Positions 542 to 52,476 are shown, numbered from the stretch's first letter. The stretch is 64,000 nt of DNA from an uncultured Acidobacteriota bacterium (GCA_963743045.1 CAVUOF010000002.1:108993-172992); one strand, 5' to 3'. The notes: generated by a model not told the origin, from the sequence alone. Numbers and translations: made by a program.

Positions 542-1066
542 ATGCAATCGAAGCAAGCGTTGGAAGCGAAGCAAACCTCCGCCCCAGGTCCGGTCTTTGT
601 CGGATCCGAAAAACTCTCTGAGCGGGCAGTAGAGTTTGCCCAGGCAATTGCCAGACGCGCTTACGAGTTCTTCGAGGGCCGTGGCCGAGCTCTGGGACAC
701 GATCTGGATGACTGGCTTCGCGCCGAATTCGAGTTGAATCGACGTGTTCCCCTGGAACTGAAGGACAACAACAATCAGTTGATCGTCCGCGCGGAAGTGC
801 CAGGCTTCAGGCCGGACGAAATCAAAGTCAGCGTCGAGCCAAATCAGATCATCATCAGCGGAAATACGGAGCAAAGGAAAGAAGGAGAGACGGCGAACGA
901 GGTCTTCTCCGAAATCCAGTCTAATCAATTCTGTCGCCGACTTGGTCTGCCCAAAGAGGTTGATCCTGCGACCGCAGTGGCGACGCTCAAGGACGGTATA
1001 CTAGAACTCACACTGACAAAAATAGCTGCCAGCACACCTACCGAGGTCGAAGTGAAGGTGGCTTAG
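542..1066 (+). CDS. Hsp20/alpha-crystallin small heat-shock protein with a DUF2934-like N-terminal motif
   Basis: ORF 524..1066. The ATG at 542 follows a GGAAAGGAAGG RBS. The alpha-crystallin core is LIVRAEVPGFRPDEIKVSVEPNQIIISG...ATLKDGILELTLTK. The N-terminal motif is IARRAYEFFEGRGRALGHDLDDWLRAE. Confidence 0.85.
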   Translation: MQSKQALEAKQTSAPGPVFVGSEKLSERAVEFAQAIARRAYEFFEGRGRALGHDLDDWLRAEFELNRRVPLELKDNNNQLIVRAEVPGFRPDEIKVSVEPNQIIISGNTEQRKEGETANEVFSEIQSNQFCRRLGLPKEVDPATAVATLKDGILELTLTKIAASTPTEVEVKVA

Positions 1067-1086
1067 CCGGCCGAGTGCCGGCTCTT
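1066..1086 (+). terminator. stem-loop after Hsp20 (GCCGGC-cgagt-GCCGGC followed by tcttg)
   Basis: Perfect 6-bp GC stem immediately after the stop codon. The T-tract is weak. Confidence 0.4.
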
Positions 1087-1377
1087 GCGGACTACACCGC
1101 GAATTTTGTAAGACGTCACCGCGCGTTAATGCTGTGCGAAGTCGTGGCGATGAGCACTTAAACCCTTGCCATCGCCATCGCCAGTGGTGAGGAAGCCTAC
1201 GAGGTTATCGACGCTGCGGATTCCTGTGACTGGAATGAACTGCGCGATGAGGTGGGCGATATCTTTATTAAGAGCTGGTTGGTTGCACGACACTCTTTCG
1301 GCGTGAGAACGAGTCAGCCGAACCTTGCAGAGTGACTCGATGCAACAGCATTTTGCCAGTCTTAAAGACGTCACCCT

Positions 1378-2743: not shown

Positions 2744-3819
2744 CTAAACCAGGTACCCGACTACCGTCATGACCACTATATAAACAATGACGATCAACCC
2801 GATGACTGTGAAGACCGGACTCTTTGTCCCGCGAGCGGCCTTGCGGTCTAGAAAGGGAACCAGCAACCAGAAGAGGCCGCCGATGGCAAAAGCCGTGACG
2901 CCGAGCACGTCGCCATCAACAGGGCCGATCTTCGCCGGCAGAATCTTGAGCGTTTGGAACATGAAGACAAAGAACCACTCAGGCCTGATGCCCGCCGGCG
3001 CTGATGCAAACGGGTCGGCTTTCTCACCTAGTTCCCACGGGAAAATGGCGGCAAGAGCCGCAAGCACAGCAAGCGCGACAAGCCACCCCATGAGATCCCG
3101 CAGCAGGAAATTGGGTACGAACTTCATCGTCTTTAAGCTCTGCCCTTCCAATCCGGGCGGCACGCTCATGCCCTTTCGCTGTACAAGGAGCAGGTGAACG
3201 GAAGAGCAGGAAGGTAGTCAGCGCCGGCAGGACGGCGACATGAAATCCGTAAAATCGTGTCAATGTTGCTCCGGTCACATCATCGCCGCCCCGCAGGAAG
3301 CGCACGAGGAAGTGCCCGATCACGGGAACCACGCCGGCGATCTCCGTCCCAACCTTTGTCGCGAAGAAACGCAAGCTTGTTCCACGGCAGCAAGTACCCG
3401 CTGAAGCCGAATCCAAGAACGATGAACAACAACAGGACCCCGGTTACCCAGGTCAATTCACGCGGCGGGCGGTAGGCCTTCATCAAATAGACACTGAACA
3501 TGTGGACGAAGAGGGTTGCAATCATCAGGTTGGCCGACCAACTATGAATGGATCGAACCAGCCAGCCGAAGTGCACTTCGCCCATGATAAACTGCACGCT
3601 CTCAAATGCTTTTTCGGAGCTTGGCCGGTAATAAAGCAGGAGCAGCGCCCCGGTTACCACCTGCACCACGAACAGGAATAACGTCATCCCGCCGAAGTAA
3701 TACCAGATGCTATGTCGGTGCGAGGGGACCTCTTTCTTTCGTGCGAGCTCCGCCAGCGGCGTCAGGCCCAGACGATCATCGAGCCACGCCAATGTTCCCG
3801 TTCGCCGCATTGGTTCCAT
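2744..3819 (-). CDS. cytochrome b (b6-like N-terminal half fused to a subunit-IV-like C-terminal half), frame-broken near 3375 and 3195
   Basis: Three ORF pieces (3280..3819, 3024..3416, 2744..3169) join into a continuous cytochrome b. Recognisable segments are [57 protein letters not shown] and [10 protein letters not shown]. Confidence 0.85.
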
Positions 3820-5148: not shown

Positions 5149-6760
5149 TCAGCCTGTTTCTGCCGGGTCTCGCCGTCGGAGCCAATCGGTCGCCATTCGG
5201 GCAAGTGCCCAAAGACTGCCGGCAGTATCCATCGGAAGAGATTCATTGTCGTTCATTGCGCATTGAGGTACGCCCTTCGTCTGCTGCCGCAAGTAAATTT
5301 CCCAAGTGGCATCAGAAAGGCTGCCTCCACGCGCGGCGCGCTCGGCGAGCCTCTGCCGCACAAGTTCCGGCGCCAGCCGGCACTCGATCATTCTCCATTC
5401 GGCGCCAGAGACTCGCGCCATCTCGCGCACCATGGCTCTATCCTCGGCACGCTGAAAGGTGGCATCCAACACTACTGCGCCATCCTCACTGAGTCGTGTG
5501 CGCGCCCATTCGATCATCGTCTGGTAGGTCCGATGATTGGCTTCAGCGGTGTATACCCCTTGCCCATAGCTTGCAGGCTCCTTGGCCGGACCGAAGAGTG
5601 ATTGCCGAACGGCGTCGGCAGAAATCACGCGCAGCCCGAGCTCGCCCGCGACGGCTCGCGCCATCGACGTCTTTCCTGTGCCCGAAAGCCCCGTAACCGT
5701 GATGACCGTGGGCCGCCGCAACCGCGATGCGTACCGCCGCGCCAGCTCGAAAAACTGCCGCGCGCGCTCCGCCGCCGCGGCCTGTTCTTCTACGCTGAAT
5801 TCAGCCTCGTTCAGCCGGAAGCTAAGCACCTTGCCACGCACAAACGCGCGGTAACAGCGGTAGAACGGCAGCAGAGTGAAAAAGTCTTTGTCGCCGGCAC
5901 GTCGCTGGTAACTTTCAGTGAAGAAGTACCCGAGATCGGGCCGGCCTCGCACGTCCAGGTCCATCGCCAGGAAAGCCACTTCGCTCGCCACATCATCACA
6001 CCGGAACCGGTCGTTGAACTCGATGCAGTCGTAGATACAGATGGCATCATCCCTCACACAAATGCTCTCACAACGCACGTCGCCGTGCCCGTCAACGACG
6101 TGGCCTTCACGCACGCGTCGTTCGAATAGGTCGATCCTCGCCAGCCAGTCGTTCACCCATTCGCGAATTGATCGGAAGGTTGCGCCACTGATTGTGCGGC
6201 CGATGAAGGCTGTGGTCTGAGTGAAATTCTCTTCCCAGTTATGGCGAATCTCCGTTGGGCTGCCCCACTTTGCCACGTCAGGCGCGCGTCGGCAGCCCTA
6301 TGGAATTCGAACAGCCGGTCGGCGAGCGGTCAAGCATCGCTTCCGTCACTTCACCGCGAGCCACTAGTCGATCGAGCATTCGGTCGTCCGGCAGTCGTTT
6401 CATCCAGACGCAGTAGTCGACAAGCTTGCCAGCGCGGCCCGAAAATCGGATATGTCCGTCGACCTCGATTACGCTGCCGACGCCAATGTACGTGTCCGGG
6501 CAGAGGCGCCGATTCAAGCGTACTTCGTCTTCGCAGGCCCGTTGCCGCTTTTCTAACGTCGTATAATCGAGAAAGCCGAAATCAACCGGCTTTTTCAGCT
6601 TGACGACATGCTTGCGCCCTAAGAGCAGCACCGAGATGTGTGTCTGAATGACTTTGATCGGCAAGTCATCTGGCGCCCACTCCGGGGCGCAGCGTAGCTG
6701 CTCGATCATCGCCCACCACGACTTCAAATCGGTCTTTTCTTGCGCAGGCACTCCGCTCAC
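5149..6760 (-). CDS. bifunctional aminoglycoside-phosphotransferase-like / P-loop (AAA_33-like) ATP-binding protein, frame-broken twice near 6280-6310
   Basis: The N-terminal piece (ORF 6278..6760) contains IQTHISVLLLGRKHVVKLKKPVDFGFLDYTTLEKRQRACEDEVRLNRRL. The C-terminal piece (ORF 5149..6276) contains the Walker A VTGLSGTGKTS. A third frame supplies LADRLFEFHRAAD between the two pieces. Confidence 0.7.
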
Positions 6761-6775
6761 GAGTGTTCGCCTGTC

Positions 6776-7441
6776 TCAAAATAACGAAATCCTTAGATTG
6801 TCTCTGACGGCCACGACTCCCGGGGCATGGCTGACAGCGCCTACAATTGCCCGCTTCTCCTCCCATGAGTTAATCGAACCGGCGAGCGTTACCGTTCCAT
6901 CGTTCACCTTGACGTCAATGCGGTCAGCCTCGCGATCTGCACGCCGCTCGAGTGCATCCTCAATTACGAACTTTATGTCATTCGGGGCAACTTTCACTGG
7001 ATTGACGACCAGTTTGTTGGTTACACCACTGACGCCATCGCAAGTCGCGGATGGCTTTCTCTGCGTCTTCACGCTCGCTGAGATAGGTTACAGCACCTGT
7101 CAGTGTCACCCAGCCGTTCGCGACCGTCGAGCGAATCTGTTGATCGGGAACAAGCACGTTCCATTCGAGCGCCTCACGTACCGCTTGCGCAATCTCAGTG
7201 TCGGTTCGCGTAAAACTGCCGGTATTTGGACCTTGATGTCGTCGGCTACATCCAGCACGCCGCTTACGCGGTGCGCTGCCTCAAGTGCAGCCAGTTTCTT
7301 GGCGTAGCTGCTTACCGTGCCAGTAAGTGTGACGACTCCCTCATCCACTTCTACTCCAACTTCCGTCTCTTCGACGCGAGTATCCCAGCGTAGTTCCTTC
7401 AGGACATCGTGATGGATTTGTTCATCGGTTTTCGATCTCAT
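6776..7441 (-). CDS. BON-domain protein (OsmY-like, three BON repeats), frame-broken near 7230 and 7070
   Basis: The ATG at 7441 follows an AAGGAGG RBS. BON signatures repeat as VEVDEGVVTLTGTVSS, VANGWVTLTGAV and VKVNDGTVTLAGSINS. It is a paralog of 9230..9896. Confidence 0.8.
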
Positions 7442-7481
7442 AGCAGGTACCTCCTTTTTAAGAAACTGATCACCATTGAAT

Positions 7482-7497
7482 AGCAACCACCGTGCCG
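7482..7497 (-). promoter_or_regulatory. sigma-54 type promoter (reads CGGCACGGTGGTTGCT on the minus strand) upstream of the BON gene
   Basis: Correct GG-N10-GC spacing, about 40 nt upstream of the ATG at 7441. Confidence 0.65.
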
Positions 7498-7751
7498 TGA
7501 GAATCGGCTGCCGAAACCCCGCAATGAGGCGACGTTTGCTAAAGTTCTGCGGAACATTGCGCACCACCGGGTTGGGAGGTTGGGGATTACGCGCATTGCC
7601 AGTCGCTCGCAATTGGTGGTGCACTTCCATGAGCAGAATGTTGACATTCCACGCATTGGCTGAACTTGCCGGCAACCCGCCCAATATAAGGCGCCAGGTA
7701 AAGCAGGCTGATGTCGTTCGTCATCCCATAGAGTCAAGTCACACGGCAGGC

Positions 7752-8226
7752 TTATGCGTTAGGACGTACTGACGACGCCGCCCTGCGCCGCCGCCTTGCC
7801 ACTCCTTCTTCACCAGCGCAAGCAGAATCATCCCGACAATGAAGAAGACCCCAACTGAGAGCAATGCCGGACGCTGGCTGCCAGTCTGCCGCGAGACTCC
7901 CGAAGATCAGTGGGCCGAGAAAAGCCAGTGCCTTGCCTGCCACCCCCAGGAAGCCGGAAGAATTCCGCCGCCCGCTCCTTCGGCGTGAAGAGCGCAAACA
8001 GGCTGCGTGAGACAGATTGACACGAGCCTAGCCCGATGCCCGCCAGCGTGGCGACGACATAGAAACCGGCCTTGCTGGTCGTCAAGTACGCGCACCACTT
8101 GTGCTCTCCTTCAGACTGTCGTACGTCAAGCCTCTCTCTGACAGCTTCATATACTTGATGACTGAGCCGGCGCTTACATGTTGATGAACGTCTGCTTCGT
8201 ATAGCGCTTGTTTTCAGCATAGTCAT
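7752..8226 (-). pseudogene. C-terminal remnant of an MFS (UMF1/Atg22-like) transporter
   Basis: Only the last ~150 residues are recognisable (GIGLGSCQSVSRSLFALFTPKERAAEFF, then GFLGVAGKALAFLGPLIFG in another frame). There is no N-terminal half, and it abuts the stop of the upstream USP gene. Confidence 0.5.
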
Positions 8227-9126
8227 TTCTCTTCTGGGACGACCTCGACCGAGCAGGGCGCATGCGTAGCCACGTAGGACGAGACACTTCCGATCAGGAA
8301 GCGCTCTACGGCCCCCATTCCTCGGGCGCCAACGAAGATGCAGTCAGCTTCCCAGCTTTTTAGCTTCGCTGATCAGCAACTGGCGTGCGCCTTCATGTTT
8401 CATCACTTTGGAGACCTTCAACCCCGAACGCTTCAATCTCGCGACCGCCGTCTCGATCATTTCAGCCACTCGTGCCTTTTCTTCAGCGATCCACTCAGCC
8501 AGGACGGCGTTCGCGTAATCACCGTCGATTAGAGGAAGCACCGCAAAGCCGTTGACTATCCGTACCTCGCTCCGTTGCGGCCAATGGCGCGCGGCCACAG
8601 CTTTCACCGCCGCCTCGGCTCCCCGAGAGCCATCCACGCCTATGATCACGCGAACTGGCTTCCCCAACTCCTTCTCACGGCCACGCGCAATGCGCACGGT
8701 GCTGTGGGCTGCATGCAGCACTTTTTGCGAGACGCTGCCCAGCAGCAGACGTCCTAAGCCCGAACGTCCATGAGAGCCCAGGACGATCAAATCTGCCTTC
8801 AAGTTCTCTGCCCTTTCCAGAATCAGGCGCGCAGGAGATCCAGCCAGGGCCTCCGAATGAATCTTCCACTCAGGGAATGACGACTTCAGCAGGGCCTGCG
8901 CGCGCTGGGCGATCGCCAGAGCGTCTTTACCTCCCTGCTCCAGGTAGCTGGTGAATTTGGTTTCAACCATCCCCAAACTGCTCGGCAGGGGCATCCACTC
9001 CGTGTGAACCGACAAGATATGGACCTCAGTCTTTCTGGGAAGCCCAGCTCGTTTCAGGTCAGCCAGTGCTGCCTTGGCGCATTCTGATTCGTCATAGGCA
9101 ATCAGGATTTTCAACATGTCCGTCAC
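8223..9126 (-). CDS. tandem-domain universal stress protein, frame-broken near 8345
   Basis: [16 protein letters not shown] and [36 protein letters not shown] mark the first domain. A second USP domain continues in another frame as [37 protein letters not shown]. It aligns end to end with 29884..30804. Confidence 0.85.
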
Positions 9127-9229
9127 AGATCGCCCCTCGTCTCAGCTCTCAAGCGTAAAATTCGCTATTGCGAAAACGATTCGGCCCGATAACGTGATGG
9201 CCCCACGGATTCGTGACCGGTCAAATTCC

Positions 9230-9896
9230 TCAGATCGGCGAAATCGTGAGATGGTCTCTGACTAACACAACTCCCGGGGCATGGCTGACAGCGCCTACAA
9301 TTGCCCGCTTCTTCTCCCATGAATTGATCGACCCAGAGAGTGTTACCGTTCCATTGCTCACATTGACATCTATGCGATAAGCCTCACGATCAGCGCGTCG
9401 CTCGAGTGCGTTTTCAATTACCCTTCGTACAGTGGTGGGGCCAACGTCCATGGGATTGACCACCAGCTTGTTGACTACACCCCTGACGCCAAGCAAATTG
9501 CGGACCGCCCGCTCAGCGTCTTCACTCTCGCTCAGATAAGCCACGACGCCTTCCAGAGTTACCCAGCCATCCGCAACTGTGGAGCGAATCTGTTGATCGG
9601 GAATGAGCACGTTCCATTCGAGCGCTCCGCGGACCGCTTGAGCAATGTCGGTGTCGGTACGGAAAAGCCACATGGTATCTTCACCTGGATGTCGTTGGCC
9701 ACATCAAGCACGCCACTCACGCGGTGAGCTGCCTCCAATGCAGCCACTTTCTTTGCATAACTGCTTCACCGGTACCGGTAAGCGTGACGACGCCTTTATC
9801 TACCTCGACTCCGACTTCGGTTTCCTCGACTCGATTATCCCAGCGGAGTTCGTGCAGCACGTCATGATGAATTTGTTCATCGGTTCTTGATTTCAT
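9230..9896 (-). CDS. BON-domain protein, paralog of 6776..7441, frame-broken near 9775 and 9665
   Basis: The ATG at 9896 follows an AAAGGAGG RBS. The sequence MKSRTDEQIHHDVLHELRWDNRVEETEVGVEVDKGVVTLTG...SINSWEKKRAIVGAVSHAPGV aligns by eye with the other copy. Confidence 0.8.
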
Positions 9897-9966
9897 AGCA
9901 GGATCCTCCTTTGATCAAAGTGCTCGCCGGATGTAAGAGCAGCTGTTAGTGATGAGAATAAGGCAT

Positions 9967-10326
9967 TTAGACATTCGGGTGGACGACCTGAAGCGAGCTG
10001 ACCGGAGTAGTCACAAAGCGCTGGCCGTTGGAGCTGAACTCCATCCGAAGTCCGACTCCAAGCCAGCCGAGCTTGATCATCCAGCCTCCAAAGGTTGAGC
10101 CGTTCACGGTCGCATCAACAGGTTCCAAAAAGTGCTTGCCGCCCTTAAGAAGCACGTGCCCGGACTCTGGGTCGAGAAGTGATATCTCGTAGTCGCTATT
10201 GAGGGTGCTAGCGCATATCGTGTCGCTGGGCATCAGGGCGGACAACATCACACCCTCAAGCTTGTCGCTCCACTTGATTGCCTCATCCAATGTGCAGCAC
10301 TCCGGCGGATCGTATGTGGTAAACAT
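9967..10326 (-). CDS. hypothetical protein (119 aa)
   Basis: Intact ORF sitting directly between a sigma-54-like promoter and the BON/USP genes. I did not recognise any domain. Confidence 0.5.
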   Translation of the reverse strand: MFTTYDPPECCTLDEAIKWSDKLEGVMLSALMPSDTICASTLNSDYEISLLDPESGHVLLKGGKHFLEPVDATVNGSTFGGWMIKLGWLGVGLRMEFSSNGQRFVTTPVSSLQVVHPNV

Positions 10327-10401
10327 GGCGTTTTCGAGTCTTGACTCCGGCTAGCTTGTCAAGCACTCCTCCTTTCGATAAGATTCATCCGCTATCGTAC
10401 G

Positions 10402-10417
10402 CGCAATCGGTGTGCCC
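10402..10417 (-). promoter_or_regulatory. sigma-54 type promoter (reads GGGCACACCGATTGCG on the minus strand)
   Basis: Correct spacing, about 75 nt upstream of the ATG at 10326. It would drive the hypothetical-BON-USP gene string. Confidence 0.65.
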
Positions 10418-11078
10418 AGCGGACAGTTGGTCAGGCTGCGCATCGATCGTTATGGTTGCGAGCTCAGATTCAGAGTTGTTCAGATAGTTGATGCGCCGGT
10501 CCCCCCAGGTTCGCCGCGTTCTTAAACCATCAACTCTCGAAGGCGATCCTTGCTGCGATAGGAGTCAATCGCGAATCGAATACCGAAGACCTTCCATTCG
10601 TAGAACTACGCACCTCGTGGGGAATATTTCGCAAGAGCGTAAGCAGTTCTGTCATCGCCTTCGATGACATAAGCATGGGGGCCGTTTTTGAAACTGAGCG
10701 ATCGTAAGGGCTGGATACTCAGGTGACATCGCACTCCACTCACCTGATCATTCGTTGCGACATTGTGGATCTGACTCAGTGTCAATAATCTGGAACAATA
10801 GTTGCCCATGGCGATGCCGATCGGCAGACGATGGCGTTAGCCGGACGAGCGTGGTATCGGCTGTCCTGGCCGGTCGGCTTTACCGCGCAAGGACTCTGTG
10901 CAGAAGGTCGATTCAATCGTCGAACGAAGCGCCATGGCGCTGCATTCGGGAGCGACATCCGGGTACCTGTCGATCAACAAACAATCAAATTGATGATTAT
11001 CGCCATCAGGATCGGTCACCTTGTCGAGCCGACCGGTCATTAGCAACTGAGCCTCGCTCTCATCAGGTATAGGCAATT

Positions 11079-12170
11079 ATGCGGACTCTAAAGACTGGTC
11101 TCATCACAGCTTTCTTCTTAATGACTGTGACGATGCTTATCGCCCCAAAGTTCGTCGGCTTGACCGTGACGCTTGCTCAGGACACAGCTCCGACCAAGTC
11201 GGGCAACGGCTCCAAGCCAGCCAAGAACGCACCGCAAGCCAAAGATAACCAGCCGGTCGACGCAAGCCAGTACGTAGGCAGCAGCGCCTGTGCGGAATGC
11301 CACACCGACATCGCTGCGTTCTTCTCCGTCACTGCGCATCACAAGACTCTGGGCGGGAACAGACCGGTGGATTTGCAAGGGTGCGAGGCATGCCATGGCC
11401 CCGCCGGCAAACACATCGAGTATTACCAGACGGCGCAGAAATTGGTGAAGGAGGGCAAGGACGAGGAAGCCGGCAAGATGTACGCAGATGAAGCCAGGAG
11501 CGCTGCAGCCAAGATGCGCAGCTTTGGCAGTCTTTCGTCCGCCGCGGCATCCGCGGTTTGTCTCAAGTGTCACGAAGGCACCGAGGGCAAGAGTGGCGAA
11601 CGATTCAATTTCAGGCGGAGCGAACACTTCCGCCACGGCGTATCCTGCCTGGATTGCCACTCGTCGCATTCACCAAAGCGTACTGAATTCCTTCTGCGGG
11701 CTGCCGAACCGGACGGCTGTTACCAATGCCATGCCGAGCAGAAGACCTCTTTTGCGCGCCCGTTCCATCATAAAGTCCCTGAGGGTGGAATGAAGTGCTC
11801 TGATTGTCATAATCAGCACGGCGGCTTTTACGTCAAGCAACTGCGCACCTGGGCCAGCGGCGATATCAATTGCGTCAAGTGTCACACGGACAAGGCCGGC
11901 CCCTTCGTCTACGAGCATGCTCCGATCAAGATCGAGGGCTGTCAGGCCTGTCACACCCCGCATGGTTCAACCAACCCGCGGCTCCTGAAGCGCAATGAGA
12001 TCAGGTTCCTGTGCCTCGAGTGCCACTCAAATACGCCTGGGATTCCTGCCGACTCGGAGGGTCCGGCGACGCCGTCATTTCATAATCTCGCAACAACGCG
12101 GTTCCAGAACTGCACAACTTGTCACGCCATGATCCATGGCTCCAACGTCAACAATCGCTTCTTCCGCTAG
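11079..12170 (+). CDS. periplasmic decahaem cytochrome c, MtrA/DmsE/MtoA family
   Basis: Signal peptide plus exactly 10 CXXCH motifs in 363 aa. The C-terminus [16 protein letters not shown] is typical of the family. Confidence 0.9.
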
Positions 12171-12189
12171 GAAGAGGACGGAGGTTTAC

Positions 12190-14279: not shown

Positions 14280-14285
14280 ATCAAC

Positions 14286-14661
14286 ATGGAGAAGACTATG
14301 AACTTAAGGACTCTGAGATTGAAGACAGCCTTGATCACGACAATTCCGGCGATCGCCCTGGTTATCGCAACCTGGTCCGCGAACGGAATACAGGCAGCCG
14401 GCTCGGCTGTCCAGGACGCTAAAGCGACATTCAACTCCAAGTGCGCATCCTGTCACGGACTCGATGGCGGCGCGGCGACTGCCAAGGGCAAGGAGCTCAA
14501 GATGAAGGATCTTCGTTCACCCGAGGTTCAGGGCATGTCCGACGACCAGCTGTACAAGGTAATCGCCAAGCGGCAAGGGTAAGATGCCACCATACGAGAA
14601 GAGCCTTGGCGCCGACACCTGCCATAAGCTGGTCGCTTATATTCGCAGCATGAAGAAATGA
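14286..14661 (+). CDS. class I monohaem cytochrome c (in the MtoD-like position), frame-broken at ~14571
   Basis: Signal peptide and CASCHG. Removing one C at 14571 restores KGKGKMPPYEKSLGADTCHKLVAYIRSMKK. Confidence 0.75.
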
Positions 14662-41386: not shown

Positions 41387-44073
41387 TCACGCCTTCTCAA
41401 GGCGCACTGCCGTGACTTTGTACTCCGGCGCGCCCGTAAACCGGTCACGATGCGGGCTGGTAACGCGGTTCAGAAACACATCCGCAGTGTGAAAGGTGGC
41501 AAAGAGCTCGCCTGGTTTGATAACGGAACTCAACTTGAGCGGGAGAACCGCTTCACCGTGGCGGCTTCGCACTCGCACTCGCTCACCGTCCTCAAAGCCC
41601 AATGCCGTCGCGTCGCCGCGAGAGATATCCAAACAGTCTTCCGGCCGCAACACCCTGTTCCTCGTGCGCATAGTCATGGTACCGGCATTGAACTGATGCA
41701 GAGTCCTGCCAGTTACGAGCAGGAACGGATAGTTTGCGTTGGTTGTCTCGGGTGTCGGCGCGTACGTCGATGCACCGGAGCGCAGCGCGCTCGCCTGTCG
41801 GGAATCTTTCTGCATGAAGCACCTGAGTCCCGGGATGATCCTCTCCTGGGCAAGGCCATTGCAGGCCGGCCCGTTCAATGCGTGGATAGGTGATACCTCG
41901 GCCTGCTTTCCACACGGCACGCACCTCGTCCCAGATCTCCTCCGGCGTGCGAAAATCAAAGAACTGCTCCTTGCCCATGGCTCGTGCGATGGCACAGATG
42001 ATTTCCCAGTCCGGCTTCGATTCTCCCAGGGGATCGATGACTTTGCGGACACGCTGGATTCGCCGCTCGGCGTTCATGAAGGTTCCGTCCTTCTCGAAGG
42101 ATGAGGCGGCTGGGAGAAAGACGTGGCCGAACTCGCGTGCCGTCTCGTTGAGAAACATGTCCTGGACGATCACCAACTCAAGCGCTCCAAGGGCGCGCCG
42201 CGTGGCATGTGCGTTCGCATTCGTCAAGAACACATCGTATCCAATGGCCCAGAGTCCTTTGAGGCTCCCTTGCTCTGCCGCATCCATCATCTGCATGCAG
42301 ATTGAGACCATTCCCTGCAGGCACGTCTGCGCGCCAGACGCTGGAAATCGAACTCCGGCCGTCAGCAAGAGAAACGGATCCGGTCAGATGCCCTGGATCA
42401 CAGCCCATGTGCGCGGCACCCTGGACGTTGTTCTGACCTCGCAACGGATTGATTCCCGTTCCCGGTTTGCCGACATTGCCAGTGAGCAGCGCAAGGTTGA
42501 CTAAGCACATCACACCTTCCGTGCCTTGCGTGTGTTCAGTCATCCCCAGGCCGTGAACGCTCAAGGCCGGCCTGGCAGTAGCATACATCCGTGCGGCCTG
42601 ACGAATCGCGCTCGGCTCGACTCCGCAGATGCTCGCCGTCTTTTCCGGAGCATATTGACGGACGAACTCGCGAAACTCATCCCAGCCGGCGAGGCGTTCC
42701 TGCACGAATGCGTCGTCCTGGAGGTGCTCCTCCACTATCGTGCAAGCCATTGCATTGAGCAGTGGTACGTTCGTCCCCGGGCGAAGCTGAAGGTGAATAT
42801 CTGCGTAATCGGCGAGCTCGATCCGGCGCGGATCGATGACGATCAGATGAGAGCCTCGCAGGGCTGCCTGTTTGATGCGCGCGCCGACAATCGGATGATT
42901 CTCGGTCGTGTTGGTGCCGCAGACGAGGATCGTCAGAGCACGCTCGATGTCATCGAACGAGTTGGTCGCTGCGCCTGTGCCGAGCATTGACTTCATGGCA
43001 ACAGCGGTCGGGGCATGGCAAACGCGCGCGCAGCAATCAACGTTGTTGGTTGCGAGAACAACGCGTGCGAACTTTTGGGCCAGATAGTTCTCTTCATTCG
43101 TGGCTCGCGCCGAACCGAGCACGCCGATACTGTCAGGCCCATTCCGCTCGACAATAGACCGCATCCGCTCGGCGGTGAAAGAGATCGCTTCTTCCCACGA
43201 GGCGCGGCGCCACTCGCCATCCTCGCGAATCATCGGCGTGGTCACCCGATCATTGGCATAGACGAACTCGAAGCTGTAGCGGCCTTTCACGCAAAGGTGT
43301 CCCTTGCTCACCGGGGCGCCGAGCGAGGGTTTGATCCCGACAATTCGTTGTTCGCGGGTGCCGACCTCCATCTCGCACCCGGTGCCGCAGTAGGCACAGG
43401 TCGTCCTGGTCCATTCCAGAGGTGTCCCGAGCGAAAGCAGGGATTGGTCTTCGAGTGCTCCGGTCGGACAGGTGTCCACGCAGGCGCCACAACTGACACA
43501 GGAACTTTCAAGCAACGTAGTTCTCGAGTCGGGCACGATCATTGTCTCAACGCCACGGTTCAATGTTTCCCACACGAACTGTCCCTGCACCTCACGGCAA
43601 ATCCGCACGCAGCGGTAACAGTAAATACATCGTGACATGTCTACGTGAATGTAAGGATGCGAATCGTCAATGATAGTCGGGTCAGTAGCGCCACGGCAGT
43701 GGTGATCGAGCCCATAGGCGCGCAGGTAGCGGTGAAACGGCTTTTCGGCGAATTGTTGTTGCGGTTCGGCCGGATATCGCTGAGCCAGCATGCTCAGCAA
43801 CCCGCGCCGCTCGTCTTCGAGCTCGGCTGTATGCGTTTCAATCTCCATGCCGTCGGCAAGCGGAGTGGTACAGGCGGTGACCGGACCTGGCCTGCCCGCC
43901 ACCTGCACGAGACACAATCGGCACTGACCGCAAGGCGCGAGACGCTCGTCGTGGCAAAGCGTGGGTACCTCAATCCCAATCGCCTGCAGACCGTCAAGGA
44001 TTGTCATCCCCTCGGTGAACTCATGTTCCTGATGGTTGATTGAGACTCGAAGATATGCCGGTTTTGAGAACAC
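41387..44073 (-). CDS. formate dehydrogenase alpha subunit (2Fe-2S / 4Fe-4S / molybdopterin; cysteine type), frame-broken near 42310 and 41760
   Basis: N-terminal ferredoxin motifs (CGQCRLC, CIYCYRCVRIC, CVSCGACVDTCP, CAYCGTGC), the active-site region CCARVCHAP, and the C-terminal PEYKVTAVRLEKA. The GTG start at 44073 follows a GGAGGG RBS. Confidence 0.88.
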
Positions 44074-44117
44074 GATCCCTCCAGGCAGCTCGAATCTCGA
44101 TGCGTTGCTTGAGAACG

Positions 44118-44597
44118 CTAGGCGCTCGCCGAGAGGGCACAACCATGGTGCTCACAAATGGCTTTGTAAGTATTGACAACATCGGCGTACGAAAGCTCCG
44201 TTTTCCCGCCAGCGGCCTTGCTCTCCCGAGCCTCAATCGTGATGTCATTCATCGAGAGAATGCCCTGCAGTACGCCATCTCGATCGACAACCGGGAGCCG
44301 TCGAACTTTATTCTCTCTCAGGGTGACGAGCGCGGACTCAATGTCATCGTCCAGAGCGCAGGAATAAACCTGCCCCGAAACTACTTCGGCGACACTGATT
44401 TCAGACGGTAACTGATTCCTGGTCGCGGCGGCGATGGCAATATCTCGGTCGGTAATCATGCCAACCACTTTGCCTTCTTTGTCCGTCACCGCGAGTACGC
44501 CACAATCGTTCTCCCACATTAGCCCTCCCGCAACCGCCAGGTTGGTGTCTGGCGAGCAGGACTTGACGCTTCCGGTCATTAAGTCTTGAACTTTCAT
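44118..44597 (-). CDS. CBS-pair domain protein
   Basis: Two CBS motifs in 159 aa, with an AAGGAGG RBS. It lies directly upstream of the formate dehydrogenase gene. Confidence 0.85.
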   Translation of the reverse strand: MKVQDLMTGSVKSCSPDTNLAVAGGLMWENDCGVLAVTDKEGKVVGMITDRDIAIAAATRNQLPSEISVAEVVSGQVYSCALDDDIESALVTLRENKVRRLPVVDRDGVLQGILSMNDITIEARESKAAGGKTELSYADVVNTYKAICEHHGCALSASA

Positions 44598-44646: not shown

Positions 44647-44662
44647 AGCAATGGCCGTGCCG
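44647..44662 (-). promoter_or_regulatory. sigma-54 type promoter (reads CGGCACGGCCATTGCT on the minus strand) upstream of the CBS-formate dehydrogenase operon
   Basis: Near-consensus match, 50 nt upstream of the ATG at 44597. Confidence 0.7.
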
Positions 44663-44815
44663 GAGATACTCCCCTACTTTATAGGCGAACCTCAAGTATA
44701 TTGGGTAAAATTACTGCACTTTGCGGGATAGCACGCAACGACCGAACGCCTCAGCCAGTCGTGTTGTAATAGCCGCGTCCCGCGCGCATAAGCAAGATCG
44801 CCGCTCGGAACGTTC

Positions 44816-44831
44816 CGGCACATGTCTTGCT
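44816..44831 (+). promoter_or_regulatory. sigma-54 type promoter CGGCACATGTCTTGCT upstream of the NDH-2/SQR-like gene
   Basis: Near-consensus match, about 110 nt upstream of the ATG at 44940. A weaker tandem match, TGGTATGTCAGCTGC, lies at 44836..44850. Confidence 0.7.
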
Positions 44832-44939: not shown

Positions 44940-46093
44940 ATGGCCAACGTGCTCGTACTTGGGCGGTGGTTTCGGCGGTCTGGTCGCGGCCGAGTCGTTG
45001 GCCAGGAGACTGGGACCCGCCCACCAGGTAATCCTGGTCTCACGCGACTGGGAGTTCATATTCTACCCGGCGCTGGTGCGGGTGGCCTTTGGCCGATGCG
45101 CTCCGGCGGATGTCCTTTACGACCTCCGGCTGGCATTGAGCTCACGCGGCATCGACTTTGTGCAAGCAGAGATCGTCTCTCTCGATCCGGATGCGCATCA
45201 GGTCATCATCGCCGACGGAGCCGGAGAGCGCAGATTGGCCTATGACTACGTCGTTTTCGCATTGGGCCGCCGGCTGGCGATTGACGATGTTCCTGGCTTC
45301 GCGAACGCTCACCATCTCCTGACAGTCGCCGAAGCCTTGAAGTTCGGCAAGGCGATCGAAGGTTTTCGACGGGGGCACGCGGTAATCGGCTATTGTCCGG
45401 AGGCCCGGCTGGCTGTGCCAGTCTATGAAACGGCCTTCGCGTTGGATCGCTTGCTCAGAGACCATGGCGACCGTCAACGAACGGCGATCACAATCATCGC
45501 TCCCGGAGCCATGGGCGAACTGTTGGGAGGCGAGACAGTGACGCCTGGTCTCCGGAGTGCCCTGGAGCAACGCTCGATCGAGTTTGTTTCTGATTTCCGG
45601 GTCAATTCGGTGACTGCCGCAGAAGTTCGACCGGAGACGGGCCAGTGTCTCGGCTACGATCTGCTCATGCTGATTCCACCGTTCAAAGGGCCAGCTTCAA
45701 CAGGTTACGCAGCAATCGCAGACGCAGACGGCTACATCAGGGTGGATGGGCACCTTCGCGCCACCGGCGCTGACCGAATATATGCTGTTGGCGACGCCGT
45801 GAACCTGCCAGGGCCAAAGATGGGTCATATGGCGGTGCTGCAAGGCGAGGTTGCGGCTGCCAATATCGCCTCCGAGGTTGCTGGCGGCAGTCCGGTTGCA
45901 CATTACGATCACGAATTGATGCTCGTCATTGATGAAGGCGAAGCGAGTTCAATCTACCTCTACAAAGAGTTGGGTCAGGAAGGCGACGCTGAGATGCAGC
46001 AGGGCCGATTTTGGACATTGGGCGAAACAAGTGCACCAAAGGTATTGGACGCGGTTACATTCTCTCGGACAGATCGAACCGTTCGACGAGTGA
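44940..46093 (+). CDS. FAD-dependent pyridine nucleotide-disulfide oxidoreductase (NDH-2 / sulfide:quinone oxidoreductase-like), frame-broken near 44965 and 46015
   Basis: Contains MANVLVLG-GGFGGLVAAE (Rossmann GxGxxG) and IYAVGDAV. The C-terminal WAKQVHQRYWTRLHSLGQIEPFDE lies in another frame. Confidence 0.8.
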
Positions 46094-46370
46094 TGGTCGA
46101 CGTGTCCGGCGATTCCACAGGAAATGCCGTTTATCCTGCTGGACGGCTATGAAGAGCACGCGACCGCGCGCTCCCAGTACTGGATTCGGCGTCCTGATTG
46201 GGCCGCCTGCGAAATCGAGCTACTGCACGGCTAGTGGTCGAAACTAGCCCGGTTCTGGTAGCGTACGCGTCCCGCGTGCTACTGCGCGAATCGCTATCTG
46301 GCAGATCAAGTCGCCGCAAACTCCATACGGAGCAGGCTGGGCGACCTGATGGCACAGTACCTCTAAGGTT

Positions 46371-47376: not shown

Positions 47377-49910
47377 TCATCGGGCTATTCCGGTGCCGAG
47401 CGCAACCCTTCGACCATCTTCAGCCATTTCGAAATCGTGGCTTTTGCCATAAAGACGCCGTTTGACTACCTCAGCCATAGCGAGATAGAGAATCACCATG
47501 AGCGTAATGATGGCGAGCAGCAGAAGCGGTGGTCTCACAAAACCGAGCACACCCGCCAGAGGCGTGAACGGCAGTATCACCCCAACGGCCACCGCCGCCG
47601 TGGTGCTGATGACGAGGGCTCTGCTCGGCCTGCTTCGCCATGGAATACCGCGGGTGCGGATGATCAGGATGACCAGGGTCTGCGTGGCCAGCGATTCAAT
47701 GAACCAGCCGGTGCGGAACAATTCCGCGCCTGCCTTGAGGCCAAAGATCAGAACGCCGAAGGTAAGGAAATCGAAGATCGAGCTCACGAGCCCCATCCAG
47801 ATCATATAACGGCGGATCACTGCCACGCTCCATTTCTTCGGCTTTTGCAGGTAATCAATATCTACGCGGTCGCCGGGAATGGTCACCTGGGAAGCATCGT
47901 AGAGCAGATTGTTGAGCAGAATCTGCGGTGGCAACATCGGGAGGAACGGGAGAAATAACGAAGCCCCGGCCATGCTGAACATATTGCCGAAGTTTGACGA
48001 TGTACCCATCAGAATATATTTCATTATGTTGGCGAATGTGCGGCGACCTTCAATGATGCCGTCGTGGACCACATGGAGCGATTTCCGCAAAAGAATCAGG
48101 TCGGCTGCCTCACGCGCCACATCGACGGCCGAATCTACTGACAGGCCGACGTCAGCCGTCCTCAGCGCCGGTGCATCATTTATTCCGTCGCCCGAGGTAG
48201 CCCACTGCGTGGCCTGAGGCCTGCAGCGCCTCGATGATCCGGCGTTTCTGGTCGGGAGTAACACGGGCAAAGATGGTGTTCTGCTGAACGACCCGCGGCA
48301 GCGCTTCGTCTAATGTTTTTCCCAGCGTTTCACCGGTAATCACACCGCGCACTTCGAGCCCGACTTCTTCGCAAACCTTTCGCGTGACGATCTCATTGTC
48401 ACCGGTCAAAACCTTGACCTCCACCGCGTCTCGTTTGAGCGCATGCAATGTGGCAGTGGCGGATTTCTTTGGCGGGTCGAGAAAAGCACCGAATCCGAGA
48501 AAGACCAGGTTCCGTTCATCAGCATAGGTTAAAATGATCCTGCTCTTCTTCAGAAACATCCCGATATGCGATTCCGAGCACACGGTAGCCGTCATGACAG
48601 AGCGCACTGAAGGTGGCGTTGTAGCGTTGCCTGGTCAACTCATCCAGAGGCTGCCTGACACCGCCATGCTCCCACTCGTTGCAGACTGTGAGGATTGCTT
48701 CCGGCGCTCCCTTGGAGATCAGCAGGGTACGCCCTTCGCCACGGAGGACAACCGACAACCGCCGGCGCGTGAAGTCGAATGGGATTTCGTCAACCTTGGC
48801 GTAGCAGGGTAATGCTGCGTGCTCGTGCCGCAGAATTGCCTCATCGAGGGGACTACGCAAGCCGGTCTGATGCGTCGCGTTGAGCAGCGCGAAGAAGAGC
48901 ACTCGATCGTCTTCTGCTCCATCCAGATCGACATGCCTATCAAGTGTGACGGCACCTTCGGTCAGCGTCCCGGTCTTGTCGGTACAAATTACGTCTATGC
49001 TGCCGAGGTCTTCAATCGCGCCAAGCCGTTTGACGATGACGTGTTTCTTTACCAGCCGTATCGCACCGTGGGCGAGCGTCACCGAAATAATCATCGGCAG
49101 CATTCCTGGAGTCAGTCCGACCGCCAGCGCAATGGCGAACAGAAACGAATCGAGCGCATTTCGATGAAAGGAGATGTTGACGAGGAAAACGAAGAGGACC
49201 AGGAAAACGACGACCCTGACGACAAACAAGCCAAACCGGCGCATGCCGCGTTCAAATGCAGTTTCAGGAGGAGCCTCGCTTAGCGTTCGAGCCAGCTGCG
49301 CGAATTGCGTAGTCACACCAGTCCGCGTGATCTCGACGAGAGCCTCTCCGCTCGTCACGTTGGTGCCGAGAAAGACGAGTCGGTCGTTTTCATTGAGAGC
49401 CGCCGGCATCTTCTCTACCGGAAACGACTCACCGGTAAATGCCGCCTGGTCCACAAAGAAATCCTTCGCTTCGACGACTTGCCCGTCTGCGGGCACGAGG
49501 TCGCCGACGGTCAGTTGCACGAGGTCTCCGGGAACTACTTCGCGGGCGGGAATCTCCCGAGCCTTCCCGTCGCGAACGACCGTGGCGCGCAACCCGACTG
49601 TCTGGCGCAGCCGCTCTGCAGCCTTTCCCGAACGACGCTCCTGAACGAAATCGAGTGTCACACTCAGCAGAATAATCAGCGTGATAATCGCCGCATTGGT
49701 CGTTTCACCAACGAAGCCCGAAACCGCGCTGGCGGCGAGAAGTATCAGGACAAGCGGATTGAGGAAGTGGGAAAGAAACTGAAGAGTCCCGCTCTTCGCC
49801 TTCCTTGGAGAGAGCTCATTGGCCCCGTGTACCGCCAATCGGCGTGCAGCCTCACTTGACGAGAGGCCGACTTGATGAGCGCCGGGATGTGGACCCGTGA
49901 TAGCCGCCAT
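47377..49910 (-). CDS. mgtA: magnesium-importing P-type ATPase (MgtA-like), frame-broken near 48560 and 48200
   Basis: Contains CTDKTGTLTEG and GDGINDAPALRTADVGLSV, plus the MgtA-type C-terminal PFLPMLPPQILLNNLLYDASQVTIPGDRVD. Three ORF pieces join. Confidence 0.8.
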
Positions 49911-49996
49911 AAGCTTCAGCTTTAACCTTGAGTCTATCCGGTCTATGCTTTGGACTACCATTTGGCAACCTGCGCCGACCAGATGCAATAGCGATC

Positions 49997-52476
49997 ATGA
50001 CACCCCTCCAGGGAACGACAACCGGTCTCACCAGTCAGGAAGCGCTGATTGCGCTGAGAAAGCACGGTCCCAACACTCTCCCGGCCACGCCGCCCACAAC
50101 CATCTGGCAACGATTCCTGCGCCAGTTCAGTAGTCCGCTGATTTATGTGCTGCTTTTCGCCCTCGCAGCAGATGTTGCTATCTGGCTCAGTGAGGGGGCG
50201 CCCGGATTGCCGGTCGACTCGATCGCTATCGCCATGATTCTTGTCCTCAATGCGGGTCTCGGAGTCTATCAGGAGAGCAAGTCGGAAGCGGCACTAGAGA
50301 GACTCAAGGACATGACGCTGCCCCTTGTCTGGGTTATGCGCGATGGGAGGCTTCAGCATCTGCCGGCGGCGGACCTTGTACCGGGCGATGTCGTACGCAT
50401 GGAGGCGGGCGATCGAGTTCCCGCTGACGGCAGGCTGATCGAAGCGGAAGCGGCCATGATCGACGAGTCTGTTGTGAGCGGTGAATCGGTGCCCGTCGAG
50501 AAGGGCGAAGGCGACGAACTCTTCAGCGGCACATTGCTGGTTCGGGGCAGAGTCTATTTTGAGGTCAGTCGCACGGGTGAAGAGAGCACCATGGGAAGGC
50601 TGGCCCTCATGATAGGCAGGCTGGAAGTCGAGCCGACCCCGCTCGAACGGAGGCTCCGGAAATTCGCCGGACAGATAGCCCGCGTCGTCCTTTGCCTGAC
50701 AGTCGTGATCGCCATCGGCGGACTCCTGGTGGAAGGCATTCAGCGCCTCAGCCACATCTTTCTCTTTGCAGTGGCGCTGGCCGTAGCTGCCATACCGGAG
50801 GGATTGCCAGCCGTGCTGACTCTCACACTTTCGCTCGGCCTTGAACGGATGGCGAAGCGTAAAGCAGTCGTTCGGCGCCTCAGTGCCGTAGAGGCTCTTG
50901 GTTCCGTAACCGTGATCGCCACAGACAAGACCGGCACGCTGACTGAAAACAGGATGTTCGTCAAGGATATTGACAGCCCGCACTCGGAGCTGGCTTTGAA
51001 AGCGGCGGTCCTGGCGAACGATGCTGATCGAGCATCCGGCGCCGGCGATCCCCTGGAACTGGCTCTGCTTGATTACGCCGTGAGCCGGGGCATGGCTCCC
51101 GACGGTCTGCTCCGCGAGAATCCGCGCATCAGCAGCCGTCCGTTCACGAGCTCACTGAAGTTCATGCGCGTCACCGTCGAACAGGACGGCTCCCCGGTAA
51201 GCTTCCTGAAGGGTGCGCCCGAAGTGATTCTCGAGAGAAGCCTTCTTTCGACTGAGGAGCGCCGCTTGTGGGATGAGAAGGCCGACAGTTACGCGCGGGA
51301 GGGTTTCCGCGTACTGGCACTCGGGCAATGTAAAGGCGAAGGCGACCACAACGCCCAATTCCTCGGACTGGTGCTGTTGTGGGATCCACCGCGGCCCGGA
51401 GGTACCCGAAGCGGTCAGGCGCGCACAGGAGGCAGGCATTCGCGTATTGATGGTGACCGGTGATCATCCGGCTACAGCACTCGCCGTGGCTCACGAAGTC
51501 GGCATCGTGACCGGTCGTGTCCTGACCGGAAAAGAGATGGAGGCAATGACCTCTGAAGAGTTGCGCGAGGCGATCACGGTGACCAATGTCTATGCGCGAG
51601 CGGCACCCGAACACAAGTTACGCCTGGTTGATGCGCTCAAGCAGAATGGTGAGATCGTAGCCATGACCGGCGACGGAGTAAATGATGCACCCGCACTCAA
51701 GCGTTCCGACGTCGGGGTGGCAATGGGTCAGCGCGGAAGTGAGGTATCGCGCGAGGTCGCTGATCTCGTCTTAATGGACGACAACTTCGCCACCATAGTC
51801 TCGGCAGTCGAGGAAGGGCGTAATATCTACGAGAACATTCAAAAGTTCATCCGCTTCCTCTTTTCGACAAACCTGGCCGAGACGCTGATCGTCGTGGGAG
51901 GCGCCTTCGGAGCCGCAGCTCTCCGGATTACGTGATGAAACCGGTGCGGTCATGCTTCCGTTGACAGCTGTTCAACTGCTCTGGGTCAATCTGATCACGG
52001 ACGGGCCGCCTGCATTGGCGCTGAGCCTGGATCGGGATCCTGGAGTCATGAAGCAAGCGCCTCGCGACCCGAAATCGAGGCTGCTCGATCGAGAATCCCT
52101 GCGCTTCGTGGTGGCTACGGGTTGCATCACGGCGGCAATAGGGGGCGGGCTGCTGGTTGGAATGCCTCGCACGGGATTCACACTCATGCAAACGCGTACG
52201 GCAATCTTTCTTGTGGCAACCATCGCCCAGTTGCTCTATGTCTATCCGGCAAGGCGGAGCCGAACTGCGACTGGGTCTAACGGAGCACTGCATGCGGTTG
52301 TAGTCCTTTGCGTGGTTCTTCAAGTGCTGACAGTGGTGATGCCGAGTCTGCGTAGCCTTCTTGGGCTGGAATCAGTCAATTCGGCGACAGCGTTGATCGT
52401 AGCCGGAGCCATACTACTGAGTTGGGCCGGCGCCGAAGCCTATCGCTTTTTTGCAGACCGGCTTCCCGCGCACTGA
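49997..52476 (+). CDS. cation-transporting P-type ATPase (type IIA / Ca2+-like), frame-broken near 51399 and 51925
   Basis: Contains ATDKTGTLTENRM, MVTGDHPATA, MTGDGVNDAPALKRSDVGVAMG and LLWVNLITDGPPALAL. Confidence 0.85.

Follow-up and report, generated by a model that had tools for sequence, protein, structure and literature searches.

Does the cluster of stress and dormancy genes in a 64,000-nucleotide stretch of an uncultured Acidobacteriota genome (GCA_963743045.1, CAVUOF010000002.1:108993-172992; hereafter the window) form a single regulon, and if so, to what does it respond? A first-pass annotation had likened the genes between positions 542 and 52476 to the DosR dormancy regulon of Mycobacterium tuberculosis, and had proposed that they are wired not to a DosR/NarL-type regulator but to a sigma-54 activator with associated PAS kinases. 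Having followed up this proposal computationally, we consider it likely, on the sequence evidence presented here, that the island is one sigma-54 regulon, a low-oxygen programme under a haem-PAS kinase and an NtrC-type activator. Many soils are dominated by Acidobacteriota, a phylum that is difficult to grow in culture and is regarded as aerobic; Blastocatellia and related Acidobacteriota are among the most abundant soil 'aerobes'. Soil aggregates frequently turn anoxic, and the means by which Acidobacteriota endure such spells are poorly understood.

Sigma-54 promoters and a common upstream site

We searched the whole window for the sigma-54 promoter pattern TGGCACN5TTGCW, allowing at most one mismatch, and obtained nine matches against 2.41 expected, a number that none of 100 shuffled sequences reached. 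All nine lie 5' of a gene and in the correct orientation. A de novo expectation-maximization (EM) motif search on upstream regions recovered a 16-nt palindrome, TGCGnAAnnTTnCGCA (EM form TGCGnAATnTTcCSCA), present in one or two copies 55-100 nt 5' of the -24 element, and this putative upstream activator sequence (UAS) is common to at least seven of the sigma-54 promoters in the window. When the window was scanned with the resulting position weight matrix (PWM), 14 matches scored 13 bits or more, compared with 1.5 in shuffles.

Pfam profiles were run against all called open reading frames (ORFs) and then against all remaining ORFs of the window. In silico, the families found behind these promoters make up the dormancy- or hypoxia-type gene set that had been claimed for the locus. 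The alpha-crystallin Hsp20, which carries an N-terminal DUF2934 (524-1066, plus strand; Pfam HSP20, E 1.3e-18), is preceded by the promoter TGGCATATAGATTGCT (437-452, +) and the UAS TGTGCAAGATCACCCA (370-385, +; 15.7 bits), and orthologous Hsp20 genes at L157 and L161 (L-numbers label related or metagenome loci) have the promoter TGGCACATAGGTTGCA and a UAS. On the minus strand, the promoter CGGCACGGTGGTTGCT (7482-7497) and the UAS TGCGCAATGTTCCGCA (7548-7563), a perfect palindrome match with no mismatches, together fit the composite pattern described below over 7482-7563; they stand ahead of two BON genes (7106-7441, with its start codon at 7441, and 6776-7072) and, as the last gene of the unit, a kinase-like protein with an AAA_33 P-loop domain, of Rv2004c type (5149-6760). 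The operon at 17395-20478 (+), which encodes a tandem-domain universal stress protein (USP; 17395-18342), a flavoprotein of the pyridoxamine 5'-phosphate oxidase (PNPOx) type (18352-18705) and a hybrid histidine kinase (18880-20478), has the promoter CGGCACAGGCATTGCT (17333-17348, +), which reads CGGCACACACATTGCT in L081 and L082, and a tandem pair of UASs (17254-17269 and 17276-17291, +). The pair is kept in L081 and L085, two other Blastocatellia genomes with UAS and promoter 5' of the USP operon.

The hemerythrin gene (21151-21705, +) follows the UAS TGCGTAATGTTCCCCA (20993-21008, +) and the promoter TGGCACAGAGCTTGCC (21091-21106, +), and heads a putative single-strand operon with a citrate synthase, a GCS2 ligase and a CBS-pair protein (21151-25030, +). 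The promoter CGGCACAACGCTTGCA (30931-30946, -), with a UAS pair at 31030-31045 (15.3 bits) and 31007-31022 (12.2 bits), precedes a tandem USP (29884-30804), a BON gene (29107-29835) and a single-domain USP (28340-28884), all on the minus strand (28340-30804; Pfam, tblastn). In the divergent control region 44647-44831, one promoter (44647-44662, -) faces a CBS-pair gene (44118-44597) that overlaps the start of the split gene for a formate-dehydrogenase-type molybdoenzyme (41390-44142; the two span 41390-44597, -), and the other (44816-44831, +) faces a flavoprotein gene (44959-46152, +); the UAS pair between them (44702-44737) could serve both. The sequence TGGCACACCACGTGCT constitutes two identical sigma-54-like promoters, at 26639-26654 (+) and 33320 (+), each preceding a Cys/His-rich small protein (gene plus promoter, 26639-27078 and 33320-33789).

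A further UAS, TGCGAAATATTCCCCA (10618-10633, -), scored 20.2 bits although it was outside the training set. It lies between two units: on the minus strand, a 119-aa protein (9967-10326), two BON genes (9717-9896 and 9230-9673) and a tandem USP (8226-9126), together 8226-10326; and on the plus strand, a multihaem cytochrome, a frameshifted beta-barrel protein, a cytochrome c and a NapC/NirT protein (11079-15316). The candidate promoter of the first unit, GGGCACACCGATTGCG (10401-10417, -), is weaker, with two mismatches, and an alternative candidate, CTGGAACAATAGTTGCC (10790-10806, +), faces the cytochrome operon. The region 10618-15316 resembles a porin-cytochrome cluster, situated directly 5' of the activator gene and with the strong UAS on its own 5' side. 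Clusters of this kind also stand behind the composite promoter (see below) at other loci, which suggests hypoxia-induced extracellular electron transfer. The multihaem cytochrome cluster may belong to the regulon, and so may the citrate synthase.

The composite promoter in related genomes and metagenomes

The first-pass annotation had named conservation of the island promoters in related genomes as a check. We scanned for UAS and promoter together with the composite pattern TGCGNAWNNTTNCSC-N{50,80}-YGGCACN5TTGCW, which has no match in 80 unrelated activator loci (~1.4 Mb) and occurs in at least 120 metagenome loci, at least 107 of them distinct. Positions that the pattern leaves free or half-free lean to the palindrome (A in 67% at position 16, A in 78% at position 7 and G in 74% at position 14), and the total length of the composite has its maxima at 82-84, 94-95 and 104-106 nt, a helical periodicity. 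Neither the palindrome bias nor the helical phasing would be expected of chance matches.

Among the matches listed, 95 unique first downstream genes were classed by Pfam and clustering; 28 of the 95 encode a secreted protein of ~130 aa, followed by BON (9), PNPOx (4), multihaem cytochromes (4), CBS (3), Crp/FNR regulators (3) and USP (2). CBS orthologues stand behind the composite in L173, L177 and L195, and multihaem cytochromes directly behind it in L106, L112, L131 and L182. Hsp20, a 601-aa ribonucleotide reductase, a FixI/CcoI-type ATPase (L128), pyruvate:ferredoxin oxidoreductase (PFOR) and Rnf are also found downstream. At L195, where the activator is 65% identical, the CBS gene, activator, kinase, USP, flavoprotein and 119-aa gene are clustered, and at L085 a USP gene and the gene for an M50-CBS protease have sigma-54 promoters of their own. 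Promoter and site are kept in relatives, with the same gene families downstream. Because the composite recurs with its phasing before these families, the regulon is, as judged from comparative sequence evidence, real and conserved, and its content is that described at first.

The secreted ~130-aa protein, uncharacterised and with no Pfam match, is the commonest target of the composite (L089, L095, L107, L113, L136, L142, L154, L166, L181, L202 and others), and its gene usually precedes the citrate synthase orthologue. At 11 or more metagenome loci this gene stands between the composite and a citrate synthase 77-79% identical to that of the window; in the window, the hemerythrin occupies the place of the ~130-aa gene ahead of the citrate synthase.

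Genes for Crp/FNR regulators were seen directly behind the composite, or beside USP and ATPase genes, at L133, L163, L197, L085 (7943-8074), L086 (2309-2611) and L208 (4238-5541). By analogy, this placement suggests a two-tier cascade in the relatives that recalls FixLJ-FixK. In the window itself, Crp/FNR genes are absent, as are FNR boxes 5' of the island genes.

The activator, the putative sensor kinase and the proposed circuit

The single sigma-54 activator of the window (15816-17231, +) is of the NtrC type, with a receiver (REC) domain, an AAA+ domain with the GAFTDA motif and an HTH_8 domain. Its Pfam matches are Response_reg, Sigma54_activat (E 8e-66), AAA_lid_14 and HTH_8, and its sequence contains the phospho-acceptor D54, the Walker A motif GESGTGKD, GAFTDA and a Fis-type helix-turn-helix (HTH). 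No GerE/NarL-type or other HTH regulator besides this activator was detected by Pfam among the window ORFs, in agreement with the claim that a DosR/NarL-type regulator is absent; rpoN lies outside the window. The order activator-USP-PNPOx-kinase is kept on the P0001 contig and in L081, L085 and L117. A genome-contig scan with the activator returned paralogues only (at most 48% identity), without synteny.

The kinase encoded at 18880-20478 has a PAS-HisKA-HATPase-REC architecture by Pfam. In phmmer searches of the PDB its PAS domain matches FixL (E 3e-18 to 1e-14) and the EcDOS/DosP haem domains; these make up 13 of the 14 matches, the other being labelled 'multi-sensor histidine kinase'. Both the residue corresponding to the proximal haem ligand of FixL (BjFixL His200) and that corresponding to Arg220, which contacts O2, are kept in the window kinase and in the five orthologous sequences from L117, L141, L085, L081 and L082. 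By these matches the domain is a FixL-type haem PAS, with haem binding predicted, and such a PAS with the conserved His is independent support for oxygen as the signal. In FixL, the deoxy form is the active kinase, and by this likeness the deoxy form of the window kinase would be the active one. The proposal that a sigma-54 activator and a PAS kinase exert control is supported in silico by the enrichment of the promoters, their common UAS, the conservation of both elsewhere and the FixL-type PAS.

From these elements a circuit can be hypothesized. The hybrid kinase would switch on when O2 leaves its haem, and would phosphorylate the adjacent NtrC-type activator. The activator would in turn bind the 16-nt palindrome, in one or two copies 50-100 nt 5' of the -24/-12 promoter and on a fixed face of the helix, and would act at eight to ten promoters by remodelling the RNA polymerase that contains sigma-54. 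The output would consist of Hsp20, three tandem-domain and one single-domain USP, several BON proteins, two CBS-pair proteins, the PNPOx-type flavoprotein and that of the SQR/NDH-2 type (sulfide:quinone oxidoreductase and type II NADH dehydrogenase, respectively), the formate-dehydrogenase-type enzyme, the Rv2004c-type kinase/P-loop protein and hemerythrin, perhaps with citrate synthase and GCS2, and probably the multihaem-cytochrome conduit. The kinase itself would also be part of the output, which would amount to positive feedback. We infer the direction of the oxygen response, and also the physiological role, which would be survival of hypoxia or energy limitation.

Alternative explanations

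Several observations weigh against the reading of the island as a single oxygen-responsive regulon. The candidate promoters near 10400-10800 are ~170-215 nt from the UAS, the identical promoters at 26639 and 33320 are without a good UAS (the PWM scan found no strong one at the window copies of the Cys/His-rich gene), and neither a sigma-54 promoter nor a UAS was found in the 86-nt intergenic region of the two P-type ATPase genes, which are neighbours and not shown members of the regulon. The kinase PAS has not kept BjFixL Arg206 or His214, and in the more distant kinase of L195 the proximal His is missing as well. The activator is assigned to the UAS by adjacency, and its presumed partner is a hybrid kinase with a C-terminal receiver, so that the phosphoryl route could require further partners. 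Many of the genes are frameshifted in the present assembly. Finally, genes for BON, Hsp20 and USP are just as characteristic of the response to osmotic stress, desiccation or stationary phase.

It can accordingly be argued that the island is one sigma-54 regulon, but serves general stress (desiccation, osmotic stress, starvation or stationary phase), and that the PAS domain senses redox state, nitric oxide, carbon monoxide or some other ligand, or binds no haem. Proteins of the BON, Hsp20, USP and CBS families are generic stress or energy-status proteins; the missing FixL pocket residues R206 and H214 and the L195 kinase without His point the same way, as does the fact that the commonest metagenome target is the secreted ~130-aa protein. 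However, the best matches of the PAS are O2-sensing haem PAS domains, and both the ligand His and the O2-contacting Arg are kept. The targets elsewhere include genes typical of low oxygen, such as those for Crp/FNR, FixI/CcoI ATPase, ribonucleotide reductase, PFOR, Rnf, multihaem cytochromes and hemerythrin, and the Myxococcus xanthus analogue described below is hypoxia-induced. A general stress role is, in our estimation, unlikely.

A second alternative holds that there is no single programme, and that chance or recombination gathered stress genes that answer to several unrelated activators, the DosR likeness being superficial. The island is certainly plastic: the contig of the closest relative, although syntenic in other respects, lacks the block 5149-9896 (kinase/P-loop, four BON genes and a tandem USP), and within the window the BON-BON block is duplicated (6785-7457 and 9239-9912, 78-85% identity), as is a USP segment (8363-8662 and 30041-30340, 77%), so that the island appears to grow by duplication. 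The activator of L083 has no USP neighbours, two window promoters are without UAS, and no NCBIfam equivalog links any member to a DosR protein, no NCBIfam family reaching its cut-off for any island protein. Against this stand the one palindromic UAS at seven or more window promoters and the recurrence of the composite, helically phased and ahead of the same gene families, in at least 107 distinct loci. Such sharing and recurrence would be very unlikely without a common regulator, and we give an accidental assembly of genes little credence.

That the frameshifts are genuine, and most island genes pseudogenes in the source organism, is scarcely credible: the ~20 split genes do include three of the four USP genes, PNPOx, the kinase/P-loop gene, both ATPases and formate dehydrogenase, but the breaks also fall in the cytochrome b, GH2 glycosidase, Pat-type acetyltransferase and beta-barrel genes outside the island, their even spread is the signature of long-read assembly indel errors, the orthologues are intact in the relative whose activator is 91% identical, and a 375-aa truncated ORF is the sole record of that sequence.

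Sequence origin and quality

The G+C content is 54-63% along the window, with no compositional break. Orthologues of the activator show 72-91% identity and, where named, come from metagenome-assembled genomes labelled Blastocatellia, Blastocatellales, Chloracidobacterium or 'Acidobacteria'; because of these labels, the source organism is taken, from sequence relationships, to be an acidobacterium of the class Blastocatellia. A Geobacter-like origin, which the multihaem cytochromes had suggested, was set aside in view of these orthologues. The broken genes, each read as consecutive ORFs of differing frames, lie in the segments 2744-3819, 5149-6760, 8226-9126, 12136-14279, 17395-18705, 28340-29835, 34783-36525, 38670-41301, 41390-44142, 47377-52476, 53017-55546 and 55570-57503. 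Besides the island genes, they comprise the cytochrome b of the bc complex, the beta-barrel protein (693 aa), a second histidine kinase, the GH2 glycosidase and the Pat-type acetyltransferase. On the contig of the closest relative the same genes are unbroken and their order is kept. Since housekeeping and island genes are hit alike and the relative's orthologues are intact, the frameshifts are probably indel errors of a long-read assembly, not marks of pseudogenes, and the gene-level annotation of the source record needs correction for them.

Long intergenic palindromes, nearly perfect and with arms of 37-58 nt, are scattered along the window in three families (15575-15731 and 36564-36679; 20804-20964, 57524-57683 and 63966-64000; 52464-52719). 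They resemble repetitive extragenic palindromic (REP) sequences or miniature inverted-repeat transposable elements (MITEs). One lies just 5' of the activator gene, and a second separates the kinase gene from the UAS of the hemerythrin gene. At 59992-63901 (-), two large collagen-triple-helix repeat proteins are encoded, with a DNA period of 126 nt in seven copies (61-100% identity to the reference copy). Rfam and tRNA scans of the window found no RNA genes.

Gene inventory of the island

Every family listed by the first-pass annotation was recovered by Pfam at or near its expected place, although some entries had to be corrected. Hsp20, hemerythrin, the formate-dehydrogenase-type molybdoenzyme and the PNPOx-type flavoprotein (truncated) stand as proposed, as do the BON proteins, for which five genes were found (the four on the minus strand between 6776 and 9896 and the frameshifted one at 29107-29835), and the CBS-pair proteins, of which there are two (24290-25030, +, and 44118-44597, -). 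Five USP genes, four of them tandem, had been counted; tblastn gives four loci, three tandem and one single-domain, all frameshifted except the tandem gene at 29884-30804. In place of one Ca-type P-type ATPase there are two divergent members of the P2A (Ca-type) family (47377-49911, -, and 49997-52476, +), whose best PDB matches are LMCA1, SPCA and SERCA; both are frameshifted. The flavoprotein at 44959-46152 does belong to the SQR/NDH-2 superfamily (Pfam Pyr_redox_2; PDB 3H8I and SQRs), but it is nearer to the type III SQR-like 3H8I (E 1.7e-31) than to NDH-2 (E 1e-7), to which it had been compared.

The protein described as APH-like (resembling aminoglycoside phosphotransferases) with a P-loop kept only the second half of its label in our profile searches. 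Its gene contains two frameshifts ~100 nt apart, near 6277-6400 by frame analysis, and the intact orthologues are 519-561 aa long and bear the JGI name 'aminoglycoside phosphotransferase family enzyme/predicted kinase'. In the reconstructed protein Pfam sees AAA_33 only, with no APH domain detected, and the PDB search gave no kinase-fold match, so that the 'APH-like' label rests on the JGI names of the orthologues and on an HGD motif.

Some smaller features accompany these genes. The 119-aa protein (9967-10326, -) is conserved but without family assignment; it adjoins the bc complex in the closest relative and the flavoprotein in L195. Between the USP and BON genes, at 28881-29010 (+), an orphan C-terminal HTH of the Fis type, without an AAA+ domain, is what remains of another sigma-54 activator. 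A segment of ~700 nt is duplicated at 26402-27117 and 33102-33791 (86-100% identity), and carries the TGGCACACCACGTGCT promoter and the Cys/His-rich protein of ~125 aa. This protein has the invariant residues C46, C58, C61, C78, H79 and H80 and a GGYGRSVRTPW motif, and 1707 homologues (63-94% identity), but no Pfam family, and its AlphaFold2 model has a mean predicted local distance difference test score (pLDDT) of 60, too low for a fold search. Homologues adjoin multihaem cytochrome clusters and Crp/FNR genes in L182, L207 and L208, and in L182 the gene has its own -24/-12 promoter and a canonical UAS in common with the divergent multihaem cytochrome. Divergent from the first copy in the window is a frameshifted gene for an ATP-grasp-like protein (25194-26649, -; faint GSP_synth and ATPgrasp_ST matches), and a remnant of the same arrangement is found at 32877-33200.

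A possible wider oxygen-limitation regulon

Going beyond the window, it may be proposed that the regulon is a class- or phylum-wide response to oxygen limitation in Blastocatellia and related Acidobacteriota, in which a FixL-type haem-PAS hybrid kinase is paired with an NtrC-type sigma-54 activator, in place of FixJ or DosR, by way of the phased palindrome. Beyond the dormancy-type chaperones and USPs, it would include multihaem-cytochrome/porin conduits, a second, Crp/FNR tier of regulators, a dedicated citrate synthase and the two small, highly conserved proteins, in a strategy to 'persist and respire extracellularly' under hypoxia. We put this forward tentatively, as a possibility on which we would lean only lightly. 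The analysis does yield a testable circuit, with a sensor, an activator, a 16-nt site, a promoter grammar and a target list for which acidobacterial genomes and metatranscriptomes can be scanned, and it points to two abundant uncharacterised protein families, the ~130-aa secreted and the ~125-aa Cys/His-rich proteins, as candidate hypoxia effectors.

Comparison with known systems

The system closest to the window regulon among those described is NmpRSTU of M. xanthus, published in 2025, in which a haem kinase acts on the NtrC-like NmpR and hypoxia induces sigma-54-dependent genes for CBS, USP, hemerythrin and P-type ATPase proteins (PMC11841059). Both systems would run from a haem-based sensor kinase to an NtrC-like regulator and sigma-54 targets, NmpRSTU in a soil aerobe; the NmpRSTU targets have two GC-rich palindromic enhancer sites, and the window promoters likewise have a palindromic site. 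Of the NmpRSTU target set, CBS, USP and hemerythrin genes lie behind sigma-54 promoters in the window and a FixI-type ATPase does so in L128, whereas the P2A ATPases of the window do not. The differences are equally clear. NmpRSTU uses a protoglobin kinase, NmpU, by way of a separate hybrid kinase, NmpS, whereas the window has a single FixL-type haem-PAS hybrid kinase and, by Pfam, no globin or protoglobin domain in any ORF; the NmpR site is GCGCA-N5-TGCGC and that of the window TGCG-N8-CGCA with an AA/TT core, so that spacing and inner bases differ; and the window regulon, in another phylum, is much richer in BON, Hsp20 and tandem USP, with no cbb3 oxidase in the window. Since NmpRSTU is already published, an oxygen regulon of the sigma-54/NtrC kind is new for the lineage but not new in kind. 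For Acidobacteriota (class Blastocatellia) the literature searched holds no description of such a programme, as had been supposed; the nearest is a transcriptomic study of Acidobacterium capsulatum, in which usp genes and the gene for a two-component kinase responded to nanomolar O2, with strong induction at 0.1 µM, but which named no regulator (PMC11636273).

The likeness to DosR, whose membership we took from PMC3177182, extends over HspX, the tandem USPs, the CBS pair, a kinase of the Rv2004c type beside USPs, a P2A ATPase (CtpF), flavin/nitroreductase-like proteins and a haem sensor kinase, and the M50-CBS protease of the Rv2625c type has a counterpart behind the sigma-54 promoter in L085. 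Control differs: DosR is a NarL/GerE-type regulator working with sigma-70, and its sensors DosS and DosT bind haem in GAF domains, whereas the window has an NtrC-type AAA+ activator with sigma-54 and a PAS-haem sensor, and Pfam found neither GerE nor GAF domains in its ORFs. The DosR operator, the Dev box, has the full consensus GGGACT-N-AGTCCC. With at most one mismatch, the pattern GGGACN4GTCCC gave four matches in the window against 2.2 expected, all of them intragenic (the half-site GGGACT is given in PMC3177182). Rv2623 is the top PDB match of the window tandem USP, at an E-value of only 8e-10, and Rv2626c ranks sixth for the CBS pair (E 1e-10). The resemblance seen here is one of protein families and architectures. 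Rv1812c, which the first-pass annotation placed in the DosR regulon, is reported as not hypoxia-induced, without a Dev box and not DevR-dependent (PMC3177182).

With FixL-FixJ-FixK the window shares the FixL-type PAS, with its proximal His and Arg220, and the HisKA/HATPase core, and there is an echo of FixK and fixGHIS in the Crp/FNR regulators and FixI-type ATPase directly behind the composite in relatives. In contrast, the partner of FixL, FixJ, is of the NarL type, whereas the window kinase, a hybrid with a C-terminal receiver, has an NtrC-type partner, and the window targets are mostly stress proteins, not cbb3 oxidase or nif/fix genes.

In content, the window is also matched by the lxa locus of the aerobe Burkholderia cenocepacia, an island of ~50 genes with six USPs, an alpha-crystallin, a cation ATPase, ribonucleotide reductase and two-component systems, which is needed for anoxic survival and whose overlap with DosR was noted by its authors (PMC3721108). 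However, the lxa motif is the Anr/FNR-like TGA-N6-TCA, read by CRP-family regulators and with sigma-54 uninvolved; in the window, the FNR/Anr box TTGAT-N4-ATCAA, with one mismatch, has five matches against 1.5 expected, all in coding regions. Across the systems compared, one and the same set of dormancy genes would have come under no fewer than three kinds of control that are unrelated to each other: DosR with sigma-70, FNR/Anr, and NtrC with sigma-54.

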